A DNA stretch of 38,344 nucleotides, taken from a virus. Lineage: Duplodnaviria; Heunggongvirae; Uroviricota; Caudoviricetes. The position numbers were made by a program, and so were the translations under genes. Position 1 is the first letter of the stretch; each line of letters opens with the position of its first letter. Positions 19,034 to 23,590 of this stretch are shown piece after piece. The stretch lies in IMG/VR virus record IMGVR_UViG_2740892016_000005; one strand, 5' to 3'. The notes under the pieces are model-generated. The model was given only the letters and a program-made list of their open reading frames with translations. It searched no databases and was not told where the DNA came from.

Positions 19034-19777
19034 ATGACCACACCAAATCCACTGGCAAAGACGAAAGGTGCGGGGACGACGTTCTGGATGTATACCGGCA
19101 ACGGCGACGCATTTGCGAACCCTTTGTCGGACACTGACTGGCTGCGTCTTGCGATGGTGAAGGATCTGCAACCTGGCGAAATGACCGCTGATGCAGAAGA
19201 TGATACTTATCTCGATGATGAAGATGCAGACTGGAAAACGACAACCCAGGGGCAGAAATCAGTCGGTGATACTTCGGCGACGCTGGCCTGGCGTCCGGGT
19301 GACAGCGGGCAGAAAAAACTGGTTCAGTTGTTCGACTCCGGTGAAGTCTGCGCGTTTCGTATCAAATATCCCAACGGTACTGTTGATGTTTTCCGTGGCT
19401 GGCTGAGTTCACTGGGTAAAACCATTGCCTCAAAAGACGTGATGACCCGCACTGTGAAAATCAGCGGTGTGGGGCGTCCGTATCTGGCAGAGGAAGGCAC
19501 TGAAACAGTGAGCGTTACCGGGCTGACGGTGGCACCGGCATCTGCCAGTGTAAAAGTGGGAGCAACCACCACGCTGACCTTTACAGTAAAACCTGACGGA
19601 GCCAGTGACAAAGCGATCAGTGTGCATTCGTCAGATCCACAGACTGCCACGGTGACCCTGAACGGGCTTGTAGCCACGGTGAAAGGCGTGAAGCAGGGCA
19701 GTGTCAGCATTGTGGGCATGACCGCTGACGGGAATTTTGTGGCTGTGGCTGCGGTGACTGTCAGCGCCGCAGGTTAA
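19034..19777 (+). CDS. V: Major tail protein V with C-terminal Ig-like domain
   Basis: ORF 18959..19777 trimmed to ATG 19034 (RBS aggaggtg). Strongly lambda gpV-like (GAGTTFWMYTGNGDAFANPLSDTDW...YLDDEDADW...NGTVDVFRGW...). Confidence 0.9.
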   Translation: MTTPNPLAKTKGAGTTFWMYTGNGDAFANPLSDTDWLRLAMVKDLQPGEMTADAEDDTYLDDEDADWKTTTQGQKSVGDTSATLAWRPGDSGQKKLVQLFDSGEVCAFRIKYPNGTVDVFRGWLSSLGKTIASKDVMTRTVKISGVGRPYLAEEGTETVSVTGLTVAPASASVKVGATTTLTFTVKPDGASDKAISVHSSDPQTATVTLNGLVATVKGVKQGSVSIVGMTADGNFVAVAAVTVSAAG

Positions 19778-19797
19778 CAGGACGATACTCATCATTT

Positions 19798-19821
19798 GCC
19801 CCGGTTATCCGGGGCTTTTTT
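19798..19821 (+). terminator. Intrinsic terminator after the major tail gene
   Basis: GCCCCGG-ttat-CCGGGGC followed by TTTTTT. Confidence 0.55.
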
Positions 19822-19834
19822 GCAGGTGGAGAAC

Positions 19835-20224
19835 ATGATGTTTCTGAAACAGGGCACGTTTAATTATGAAAAACAGTCCGTGGTGCTCAGTGAGCTGTCC
19901 GGGCTGCAGAGAATTGAATATCTGGCGTTTGTTCAGCAGCGAACGGCAAAGTTTGATGCCGGTGAGGGAGAACTGCCGGAGGCTGAACGACAGATTGCTT
20001 TTCTGCGGATGGGGATGGATATCAATGCCTGGCTGGTTTCCCGCTCACTGTGGAATGCGGATCAGTCTAAGGATGTAGAGACGCTTTGCGCATCCGTTAT
20101 TACAACATGGTCGTATGATGCCCTGGGTGCGGGGGCGGAGATGGTTCTGTCGCTGAGCGGTATGGGGGCCATTGATAATGCCGGGGATGATGAGCATGAG
20201 GCGCTGACGCCGGAAAAGTCCTGA
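19835..20224 (+). CDS. G: Tail assembly chaperone G
   Basis: ORF 19796..20224 trimmed to ATG 19835 (RBS aggtggag); begins MMFLKQ like lambda gpG (MFLK...); contains LSELSGLQRIEYLAF. Confidence 0.8.
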   Translation: MMFLKQGTFNYEKQSVVLSELSGLQRIEYLAFVQQRTAKFDAGEGELPEAERQIAFLRMGMDINAWLVSRSLWNADQSKDVETLCASVITTWSYDALGAGAEMVLSLSGMGAIDNAGDDEHEALTPEKS

Positions 20225-20562
20225 CGCGGGAAATGCAGTTTGTCATGCGGCTTGCCCGGGAGTTCCGGCGGGCAGACTGGCGGCGGATGCTGTCGGAAAT
20301 GTCGGCCACTGAGCTTGGTGAGTGGGGCGATTATTTCCGGATGCAGAGCTTCAGTGATGTGTGGATGGATGCGCAGTTTGCCTCGCTGAAGGCATTGATC
20401 GTGAGAATGGTGTCCGGCAGCAGTGATGCTGCGGTGGCTGATTTCAGCCTTTTACCGGAAGAGAACGGGATACCGGAGCGAACGGACGAAGAACTGATGC
20501 ATCTTGGGGAAGGTATTTCCGGAGGTGTGCGTTATGGACCAGATAGCCAACCTGGTCATTGA
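20212..20562 (+). CDS. T: T-frame extension of the tail assembly chaperone (G-T fusion by programmed -1 frameshift)
   Basis: The -1 frame is closed by TGA at 20197-20199 and open from 20200 to 20562, so a shift must occur at 20200-20224. The only slippery-like heptamer there is GGAAAAG at 20212-20218 (lambda uses GGGAAAG). The T frame overlaps the tape-measure start. Confidence 0.6.
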   Translation, partial: GKVLTREMQFVMRLAREFRRADWRRMLSEMSATELGEWGDYFRMQSFSDVWMDAQFASLKALIVRMVSGSSDAAVADFSLLPEENGIPERTDEELMHLGEGISGGVRYGPDSQPGH

Positions 20563-23500
20563 TTTGGGGATTGATGCGGCAGAGTTTAAAAATGAAATCC
20601 CCCGTATCAAAAACCTTCTGAATGGTGCAGCCAGCGATGCAGAACGGTCTTCTGCCCGTATGCAGCGTTTTATGGAGCGTCAGACTCAGGCCGCCCGGCA
20701 GACAACGCAGGCGGCGTCTTCGGCTGCAACAGCCGCATCCGTCCATGCGCAGACGGTGGAGAAGAACGCACAGGCTCATGAACGCATGGCCCGCGAGGTG
20801 GAGAAAACCCGCCAGCGCATGGAGGTGCTGAGCCAGAAAATGCGCGAGGAACAGGCGCAGGCCATGGCTCTGGCGGAGGCTCAGGATAAAGCGGCTGCTG
20901 CGTTTTATCGTCAGATTGACAGTGTGAAACAGGCCAGTGCGGGTCTGCAGGAATTACAGCGTATTCAGCAGCAGATCCGACAGGCCAGAAACAGTGGCGG
21001 GATTGGTCAGCAGGATTATCTGGCGCTGATTTCTGAGGTTACGGCGAAAACCCGTGTTCTTACACAGGCTGAGGAAGAGGCTACCCGACAGAAAGTGGCG
21101 TTTATCCGTCAGCTTAAAGAGCAGGCAACCCGCCAGAATCTTTCTTCTTCTGAGTTGCTTCGTGCTAAGGCTGCCCAGCTGGGGGTAAGCAGTGCTGCAG
21201 AAGTGTATATCCGCAAAATGGAGCAGGCAGGAAAAGCCACGCATTCGCTGGGGCTGAAAAGTGCAGCGGCCCGTCAGGAGATAGGCGTTCTGATAGGTGA
21301 ACTGGCCCGCGGAAATTTAGGTGCGCTGAGGGGATCCGGAATAACGCTGGCTAACCGTGCCGGGTGGATAGACACATTGATGTCACCGAAAGGCATGATG
21401 CTTGGCGGGGTTATTGGCGGTATTGCCGCGGCTGTCTATGGTCTGGGTAAAGCCTGGTATGACGGTCAGAAGGAGGGGGAAGAATTTAACCGCCAGCTGT
21501 CGCTGACGGGGCATTATGCCGGAGTCACTGCCGGGCAGCTGTGGACGCTCAGTCGTGCTATTTCCGGGAATGGTATCACGCAACATGCTGCAGCCGGTGC
21601 GCTGGCTCAGGTGGTGGGGAGTGGTGCATTTCGTGGAAACGATATCGGTATGGTGGCGAGAGCTGCCGCACAGATGGAGCGATCGGTTGGCCAGTCGGTC
21701 AGCGATACCATAAATCAGTTTAAGCGGCTGAAGGATGATCCTGTAAATGCCGCGAAGTCTCTGGACAATGAGCTGCATTTTCTTACTGCCACTCAGCTTG
21801 AGCAGATACGCGTCCTTGGAGAGCAGGGGCGGTCCAGTGATGCGGCACGGATAGCCATGTCTGCACTGGCAGAGGAAACCGGTCGGCGTACTGCGGATAT
21901 TGATAATAACCTCAATGCGCTGGGCAGTACGCTGCAAACTTTGTCTGACTGGTGGAAGCAGTTCTGGGATGCGGCCATGAATATTGGTCGTGAAGATTCG
22001 CTGGATGCGCAGATTGCCACTTTGCAGGAGAAAGTGTCGCGGGCGAAAAGACTCCCCTGGACGGCATCATCTTCTCAGGTTGAATACGATCAGCAGCGTC
22101 TTAACGATCTTCAGGAGAAAAAACGCCAGAAGGATTTGCAGGATGCAAAAGAGCAGGCAGAGCGGAATTATCAGGAGCAACAGAAACGCCGTAATGCTGA
22201 AAATGCTGCACTGAACCGGATGAATGAAACGGAAGCTGCACGACATCAGCGTGAAATTGCGCGTATTAATGCCATGCAGTACGCCGATCAGGCTGTCAGG
22301 GATGCGGCGATACAACGTGAAAATGAACGTTACGAGAAAGCCCTGGCATCCGGTAAGAAAAAAACACGCGAAACCCGTAATGATGAGGCCACCCGGTTAT
22401 TGCTGCAGTACAGTCAGCAACAGGCACAGGTGGAAGGACAGATTGCTGCTGCAAGACAGTCAGCAGGCATTGCCACTGAAAAGATGACAGAAGCGCATAA
22501 ACAGCTTCTGGCTCTGCAGCAGCGCATCAGCGATCTGGACGGGAAAAAACTGACGGCAGATGAAAAGAGTGTGCTGGCCCGTAAAGATGAACTGATTCAG
22601 GCACTGACGCTGCTGGATGTAAAACAGCAGGAGCTTCAGAAACAGACGGCACTCAACGATCTGAAGAAAAAAACAATTCAGCTGACCAGTCAACTGGCTG
22701 AAGAAGAGCGCGCTCAGCGTCAGCAACATGACCTGGATATCGCCACGGTTGGTATGGGTGATCAGCAGCGGCAGCGATATCAGGTACAACTGAGTCTTCG
22801 CCAGAAATACCAGCAACAGCTGGAGCAGTTGAGGCGGGATAGTGAGCAGAAAGGGACATATAACACGGATGACTACAGAAAGGCCGAGCAGGCGCTGACG
22901 GAGAGCCTGAACCGACAACTGAATGAGAATCGCCGTTACTGGCAACAGCTTGAAATTGCTCAGGGTAATTGGAAAAACGGAGTCCTGCGTGCACTCCAGA
23001 ATGTCACTGAGAATGCGGATAACACAGCCGGGACAGTGGAACAGTTGTTCACGTCTGCGTTCAGTAGCATGAGTGACTGGCTGGCGACATTCTGTACTAC
23101 AGGCAAACTCAATTTCAAATCTTTTACTTCTTCTGTGCTGTCAGATATGTCCAGAATCATGGCTCAGATAGCTTTAATGAAAGCGGTAAAAGGCATTGCT
23201 TCCGCGCTGCCTTTTGATTTTGTAGCCAATGCTGATGGCGGTGTTTATCAGTCGGCTGATTTGAGTCGCTACAGTGGCACGGTGGTTAACCGTCCGACGT
23301 TTTTTGCTTTTGCAAAAGGCGCGGGTGTGATGGGGGAAGCTGGACCTGAAGCCATTCTGCCACTGCGTCGTGGTGCTGACGGTAAGCTGGGGGTTGTGGC
23401 GGATATTGGTGGTTCAGGTATGGCGATGTTTGCCCCGCAGTACAACATCGAGATCAATAACGATGGCACGAACGGGCAGATAGGTCCGGCTGCCCTGAAG

Positions 23501-23590
23501 GTGGTTTATGACCTTGGGAAAAAAGCGGCAGCGGACTTTATGCAACAGCAGGCCCGTGATGGTGGTCGGTTAAGTGGAGCATATCGGTAA
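20534..23590 (+). CDS. H: Tail tape measure protein H
   Basis: ORF 20504..23590 trimmed to ATG 20534 (RBS ggaggtg); ~1018 aa, coiled-coil and Q/A/R-rich, with the conserved C-terminal region typical of lambda H. Confidence 0.9.
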   Translation: MDQIANLVIDLGIDAAEFKNEIPRIKNLLNGAASDAERSSARMQRFMERQTQAARQTTQAASSAATAASVHAQTVEKNAQAHERMAREVEKTRQRMEVLSQKMREEQAQAMALAEAQDKAAAAFYRQIDSVKQASAGLQELQRIQQQIRQARNSGGIGQQDYLALISEVTAKTRVLTQAEEEATRQKVAFIRQLKEQATRQNLSSSELLRAKAAQLGVSSAAEVYIRKMEQAGKATHSLGLKSAAARQEIGVLIGELARGNLGALRGSGITLANRAGWIDTLMSPKGMMLGGVIGGIAAAVYGLGKAWYDGQKEGEEFNRQLSLTGHYAGVTAGQLWTLSRAISGNGITQHAAAGALAQVVGSGAFRGNDIGMVARAAAQMERSVGQSVSDTINQFKRLKDDPVNAAKSLDNELHFLTATQLEQIRVLGEQGRSSDAARIAMSALAEETGRRTADIDNNLNALGSTLQTLSDWWKQFWDAAMNIGREDSLDAQIATLQEKVSRAKRLPWTASSSQVEYDQQRLNDLQEKKRQKDLQDAKEQAERNYQEQQKRRNAENAALNRMNETEAARHQREIARINAMQYADQAVRDAAIQRENERYEKALASGKKKTRETRNDEATRLLLQYSQQQAQVEGQIAAARQSAGIATEKMTEAHKQLLALQQRISDLDGKKLTADEKSVLARKDELIQALTLLDVKQQELQKQTALNDLKKKTIQLTSQLAEEERAQRQQHDLDIATVGMGDQQRQRYQVQLSLRQKYQQQLEQLRRDSEQKGTYNTDDYRKAEQALTESLNRQLNENRRYWQQLEIAQGNWKNGVLRALQNVTENADNTAGTVEQLFTSAFSSMSDWLATFCTTGKLNFKSFTSSVLSDMSRIMAQIALMKAVKGIASALPFDFVANADGGVYQSADLSRYSGTVVNRPTFFAFAKGAGVMGEAGPEAILPLRRGADGKLGVVADIGGSGMAMFAPQYNIEINNDGTNGQIGPAALKVVYDLGKKAAADFMQQQARDGGRLSGAYR

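Follow-up and report, generated by a model that had tools for sequence, protein, structure and literature searches.

The window, the whole 38,344-nt stretch of DNA analysed here, carries the tail module of a lambdoid prophage of the mEp460/cdtI type, in which the tail genes follow the order V, G, T, H and each gene has its own Pfam match. Positions 19780–20600 are 98–100% identical to phages mEp460, mEp460_4F5, PhiR47_1, Tritos, HannyBb and cdtI. G and T are overlapping reading frames between the genes for the major tail protein and the tape measure protein; these frames, gene H and the signals discussed around the G–T junction are all on the plus strand. The V homologue, encoding the major tail protein, occupies 19034–19777 and matches the lambda tail tube protein family (PF16461) together with an Ig-like Big_2 domain. 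Gene G, for the tail assembly chaperone, runs from 19838 to 20224 and encodes 128 amino acids with the C-terminus ALTPEKS; an alternative ATG lies at 19835, and the 19838 start is based on the MFLK N-terminus of G homologues. Its product is a homologue of lambda gpG, with a match to Phage_TAC_2 (PF06894, E=1.8e-39) that covers 121 of 129 residues, and the T frame encodes a gpT homologue, since the −1-frame segment 20200–20559 matches Phage_tail_T (PF06223, E=5.1e-15). Gene H, encoding the tape measure protein, extends from 20534 to 23590, with matches to TMP_2, TMP_4 and Tape_meas_lam_C; its start agrees with the mEp460 annotation and overlaps the end of T (20534 versus 20562).

Two further features of this region are recorded as side observations. 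The 57-nt gap between V and G (V ends at 19777; G starts at 19835 or 19838) contains, at 19798–19821 on the plus strand, a strong hairpin resembling an intrinsic terminator (GCCCCGG TTAT CCGGGGC, then TTTTTT), and a terminator is marked at the equivalent place in the records of both mEp460 and N15; this hairpin may lower the transcription of G, T and H relative to V. A long open reading frame, also on the plus strand, spans 15126–17345, with up to 739 amino acids from the first possible start, and our impression from its translation is of a head protease of the ClpP type fused with a major capsid protein.

The T frame lies at −1 relative to G, and the two stop codons that bound the overlap define where a ribosome could pass from one frame to the other. 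The 3′ end of G reads GAG GCG CTG ACG CCG GAA AAG TCC TGA, with the stop TGA at 20222–20224, and the −1 frame, closed by a TGA at 20197–20199, is open from 20200 to 20562 (GGC GCT GAC GCC GGA AAA GTC CTG ACG at its beginning). A shift must therefore take place within the 25 nt from 20200 to 20224. This overlap contains the heptamer G_GAA_AAG at 20212–20218, in the X_XXY_YYZ phase and two codons before the G stop, which reads Glu-Lys in the 0 frame and GGA AAA (Gly-Lys) in the −1 frame; inspection of the 25 nt revealed no other slippery pattern. Both the limits of the shift and the heptamer as its sole candidate were part of the original prediction, and both are borne out by this reading. G_CCG_GAA was also considered as a shift site and rejected, as tRNA-Pro would face a first-position mismatch. 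The predicted GT fusion has 241 amino acids, 127 from G through the Lys of AAG (20216–20218) and 114 from the T frame, whose segment after the shift (20218–20562, 114 codons and a stop) begins with the re-read G at 20218. By a rough estimate, the chance of finding one in-phase GGAAAAG in a given overlap of 25 nt is about 1 in 1000. GGAAAAG by itself is nevertheless common in the window, with 13 copies versus 5.9 expected, and the case must thus rest on comparison and conservation.

We therefore turn to the relatives of G, of which 191 loci from viral and genome collections yielded 27 distinct G 3′ junctions; further scans of the collections with the G of lambda and of two other loci (L092 and L090) added hardly any new diversity. 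The junction sequence CGGAAAAG is unchanged in 24 of the 27, down to 39% identity in G. All relatives with 100% to 54% protein identity, from prophages of E. coli, Shigella and Salmonella, end in CCG GAA AAG (T/C)CC TGA, and the 15 codons upstream of this conserved junction are hypervariable and unalignable. Two relatives at 42% and 39% identity retain GCG GAA AAG, and three at 35% have CCG GGA AAG TCT TAG, so that the canonical heptamer of lambda falls on precisely these codons. The smallest overlap among the relatives is 19 nt (L098, L105 and L107), where the stop corresponding to 20197–20199 is nearer, so that the shift is confined there to the five codons T TCG CCG GAA AAG TCC.

The choice of codons points in the same direction. 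Across 15 diverse G genes there are 20 columns with an invariant, degenerate amino acid, and only three of these use a single codon; the GAA and the AAG of the heptamer are two of the three, AAG being the minor Lys codon in E. coli (0.24; PMC3296357). Furthermore, the base preceding GAA is G in all cases, whether it belongs to a Pro codon (CCG), an Ala codon (GCG) or a Leu codon (CTG or TTG), and this constancy across differing codons argues that the first position of the heptamer matters. On these comparisons, we conclude that CGGAAAAG is under strong purifying selection at the level of its exact nucleotides.

A rival notion is that the locus is a decayed remnant of a cryptic prophage without any recoding, or that RNA polymerase, and not the ribosome, slips on the run of A's. 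Many E. coli prophages are indeed defective, and the site does contain A4. However, the same junction is present in mEp460, cdtI, Tritos and HannyBb, which are inducible or plaque-forming phages, and it is found with the site intact in 1,844 of 5,426 complete E. coli genomes; four A's, moreover, are far too few for transcriptional slippage. We find this explanation, in either form, hardly credible, and it is a slip of the ribosome within the overlap that is pursued below.

Extending the comparison to the whole family places the heptamer in a broader context. A search of 1.84 billion cluster representatives with the G profile yielded 116 proteins, 65 of them full-length (representatives at 50% identity), which can be classed by their C-termini. 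The class ending in EK followed by 0–6 residues makes up 46 of the 65, with five ending in AK, four in GK (the lambda cluster included), three in PK and seven in another motif or none. DNA was examined for 12 representatives (seven EK, two GK, two AK and one PK) and for an additional EK relative (L274). All eight EK junctions read NNG_GAA_AAG, both GK junctions G_GGA_AAG and both AK junctions A_GCA_AAG, and the single PK case has C_CCA_AAA. With EK in 46 of 65 representatives and GAA AAG in eight of eight EK junctions, G_GAA_AAG is thus the norm of the gpG family, and lambda's GGGAAAG is the minority form. Other shift sites occupy the homologous position at the 3′ ends of G in L109, L091 and L108 and in L282, L283 and L287; these alternatives comprise G_GCA_AAA directly before TAG, A_GCA_AAG and C_CCA_AAA, and where G_GCA_AAA abuts the TAG, tRNA-Lys possibly slips in the P site at the stop codon.

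The T side of the junction is equally informative. The −1 frame across the heptamer reads Gly-Lys in every clade, and similarity to lambda T and to all relatives begins right after this Gly-Lys, with VLTREMQFVMRLAREF in the window and VFDGELSFALKLAREM in lambda. When the predicted GT fusion was used as a tblastn query, every relative listed gave an alignment in two pieces. No start codon of the T frame was found to be conserved across clades. In the mEp460 record and in RefSeq PGAP annotation, T is a gene of its own, without a join, that begins at an ATG at 20233–20235; this ATG lies 8 nt past the G stop, so a stand-alone T protein made from it, for example by reinitiation after termination at the TGA at 20222, has to be considered. 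Against this, neither the Salmonella/Gifsy-2 clade nor lambda has the ATG in its T frame, conservation starts upstream of it, at the heptamer, and it has no properly spaced Shine–Dalgarno sequence because GGGAA directly abuts it. In lambda, the G part is said, from the work of Xu and colleagues in 2013 and 2014, to be required for binding H. As the ATG at 20233 is not conserved, a stand-alone T is not a conserved feature of these phages, and the fusion at the heptamer is. Judged from the sequence comparison, this ATG is probably not a functional T start, and we regard a separate T protein as quite improbable compared with a fusion made by frameshifting.

Comparison with known systems starts with lambda, whose G/GT pair is an established programmed −1 frameshift (Levin, Hendrix, Casjens 1993; Xu, Hendrix, Duda 2004, 2013, 2014; as cited in PMC5009743). 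The window resembles lambda in the V-G-T-H order, in the Pfam families of G and T, in the Gly-Lys of the −1 frame and in the homologous position of the shift, which precedes the G stop by a few codons; neither has an obvious stimulatory structure. Every feature of the lambda-type G/GT frameshift that can be judged from sequence is found in the window. There are two differences. First, the lambda heptamer is G_GGA_AAG (TCT GCG GGA AAG TGT), on the other hand that of the window is G_GAA_AAG, so that the P site would hold tRNA-Glu with a G-U pair in the middle in the window and tRNA-Gly with a third-position wobble in lambda. Second, the G stop follows two codons past the site in the window and six in lambda, the G tail of the window being the shorter.

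Closer precedents exist for the heptamer itself. Phage N15 has an identical GGAAAAG at the homologous position in genes 14/15, and its GenBank record marks GGAAAAG with a misc_feature, 'slippery sequence for -1 translational frameshift'. The Gifsy-2 junction (ACG CCG GAA AAG TCC TGA) is the same as that of the window, and the T homologue in its record is labelled 'part of G+G' frameshift hybrid protein'. Phage phi80 has GCG GAA AAG at the homologous position. N15 and phi80 differ from the window in their GCG codon, in a longer, lambda-like tail (ending in PSPVS) and in a G identity of about 36%. Given the N15 and Gifsy-2 annotations, the heptamer and its role are already on record, and the site in the window is an ordinary, previously recorded case of the conserved tail-chaperone frameshift.

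More distant systems share parts of the site. In eukaryotic RNA viruses, sites of the form G_GAN_NNN have the same G_GA first part as the window, in different hosts and on different ribosomes, and G_GA is a recognised exception to the identity of XXX in several of these viruses (PMC5009743, PMC4645344). The PRFect motifs of actinobacteriophages, GGGGGAA and CCCGGAA, carry GAA as the second (A-site) codon, unlike the window; for the chaperone frameshifts of these phages, a move of tRNA-Glu from GAA to GGA with a G-U pair has been proposed (PMC10885494). In the open-access literature accessible to us in which GGAAAAG occurs together with frameshifting, there was no discussion of phage tails and no value for its efficiency in vivo, and the supplement of Bock et al. 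2019 contains no G_GAA_AAG variant, second-position changes lying outside its sample.

Taken together, the comparative data (conservation of the site, homology of the T frame and the annotation of relatives) support the original prediction of a programmed −1 frameshift between G and T, and we consider it very probable that the fusion arises by a −1 slip of a small fraction of ribosomes at G_GAA_AAG, with both tRNAs re-pairing and a low ratio of GT to G as the outcome. Most ribosomes translating G (19838–20224) would stop at the TGA at 20222 and release gpG, and a small fraction would slip back one base at 20212–20218 and read the T frame to 20562, yielding the 241-residue GT. In the A site, tRNA-Lys (mnm5s2UUU) would move from AAG to the fully cognate AAA. 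In the P site, tRNA-Glu (mnm5s2UUC) would move from GAA to GGA, keeping Watson–Crick pairs at positions 1 and 3 with G-U in the middle, and Peng et al. 2019 describe this re-pairing likewise (PMC6924986); the G-U re-pairing that had been predicted for the P-site tRNA is correct, with the middle position as its place. If the roles known from lambda carry over, GT would bind H, the tape measure protein, through its G part and recruit V, the major tail protein, through its T part, and the purpose of the site would be to keep GT scarce relative to G. In lambda, about 96% of ribosomes stay in the 0 frame (PMC3296357), and the G:GT ratio of about 30:1 matters (PMC3296357, PMC5009743).

The low efficiency that we infer for the site has some support in vitro. 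In a reconstituted E. coli system with wild-type EF-G, AUG GAA AAG gave mainly the 0-frame product and served as the unfavourable control versus G GGA AAG (PMC6924986), which suggests that the intrinsic slipperiness of the site is probably low and fits the suggestion, made with the prediction, that this would be a lower-efficiency shift site. The description of the site as non-canonical holds in one respect and fails in another: the first three bases of the heptamer are G_GA and not identical, which departs from a strict X_XXY_YYZ, but the site is no oddity, being annotated in N15 and forming the majority heptamer of the gpG family. Its second half is of the regular kind, as YYY is A in A_AAG (20215–20218) and the A-site tRNA can re-pair cognately from AAG to AAA, which is the most favourable case in E. 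coli.

A rival reading makes do without the first half. A shift at the same place could come from tRNA-Lys slipping alone on A_AAG, as in the NNA_AAG class of hexanucleotides that is documented in E. coli (PMC5009743), with no productive re-pairing of tRNA-Glu to GGA. In E. coli, no tetramer is more prone to shifting than A_AA.G, but A_AAG alone, without a stimulator, stays near background (PMC4066793). Some members of the family have A_GCA_AAG, in which the P-site tRNA is unable to re-pair, so that P-site re-pairing is not always needed. On the other hand, the G before GAA stays the same whether its codon is for Pro, Ala or Leu, and GAG never takes the place of GAA, which would be unexpected if A_AAG were all that mattered. 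The invariant G and GAA thus favour a tandem slip on the heptamer over a slip of tRNA-Lys alone, tempered by the A_GCA_AAG members, and we think a slip of tRNA-Lys alone unlikely. The tandem slip at G_GAA_AAG is retained as the preferred reading in what follows.

For stimulators, dnaX of E. coli provides a comparison. Its A_AAA_AAG site shares the A-site event of the window, with tRNA-Lys moving from AAG to AAA, and the wild-type site shifts at high efficiency, about 80% (PMC6787027). dnaX has a strong upstream Shine–Dalgarno sequence and a downstream stem-loop, whereas the window has an SD-like element that is weak and lacks generality, and no hairpin is conserved there. Downstream, the RNA fold of 20212–20320 is not better than that of shuffled sequences (MFE z=−0.92). 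A consensus fold of nine sequences likewise did not surpass shuffles and gave no conserved helix near the site, a stem-loop or pseudoknot of the dnaX type 5–9 nt downstream being absent; what it did give is a weak structure (−8.7 kcal/mol) with little covariation, beginning over 30 nt downstream.

Upstream, a Shine–Dalgarno-like GAGG at 20198–20201 ends 10 nt upstream of the heptamer, a spacing as in dnaX, and GAGG or GGAGG recurs 10–11 nt before the heptamer in two clades, that of the window and that of Salmonella. [quoted passage not shown] GAGG is absent from N15, phi80 and others despite their having the same heptamer, and a Glu at this position is conserved family-wide, lambda included (GAG CCT); the motif, a candidate for a weak stimulator, is thus not supported as a general signal. 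The codon GAG at 20198–20200, the fifth upstream of the P-site codon, is common to the window, the Salmonella clade, L090, L092, L091/L108 and lambda; nearby Glu codons are mostly GAA, unlike this one, and N15 and phi80 have GAA there. In sum, the fold and anti-Shine–Dalgarno analyses yielded no convincing stimulator for G_GAA_AAG.

The site is of mild interest beyond this prophage, in that the gpG family most often shifts, with no evident stimulator, at a sequence used by biochemists as a poorly slippery control. One may speculate further, with considerable doubt, that G_GAA_AAG, although in vitro work regards it as all but non-slippery, predominates among the G–T sites of lambda-like phages and is possibly their ancestral form, and that a useful level of GT is reached either through an unrecognised stimulator (the nascent peptide, the NCG codon in the E site or a weak upstream Shine–Dalgarno sequence) or because the P site in vivo tolerates the middle G-U pair of the mnm5s2U-containing tRNA-Glu. 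In that case G_GAA_AAG should be added to the rules for bacterial heptamers, and this clade of phages would depend on the 2-thiouridine pathway through both of the slipping tRNAs. The efficiency of GGAAAAG relative to GGGAAAG bears on what P-site mismatch is tolerated when a few per cent of frameshifting suffices.

There is also a consequence for annotation, as RefSeq and most phage records of this very common type of prophage give T as an independent gene from an internal ATG and omit the GT fusion, which concerns 1,844 of 5,426 complete E. coli genomes. In one RefSeq locus annotated by PGAP (L275, 734–1063), G and T are separate genes without a join, T starting from the ATG equivalent to 20233, and the lambda RefSeq record NC_001416 itself lists G and T apart and omits GT. 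Two proteins in the protein database, P0026 (215 aa) and P0044 (212 aa), are in-frame G–T fusions with both PF06894 and PF06223. They are deletion variants that lack the tail of G and the shift site, and we set them aside as evidence since they are uninformative on the shift; whether natural or products of assembly, such variants would make GT only. Finally, two metagenome-assembled genomes, one labelled Bacillota (L084) and one labelled Proteobacteria, from soil (L087), carry a G that is 93–96% identical to the E. coli prophage gene, and their taxonomic labels are unlikely to be correct, contamination during binning being the probable cause.
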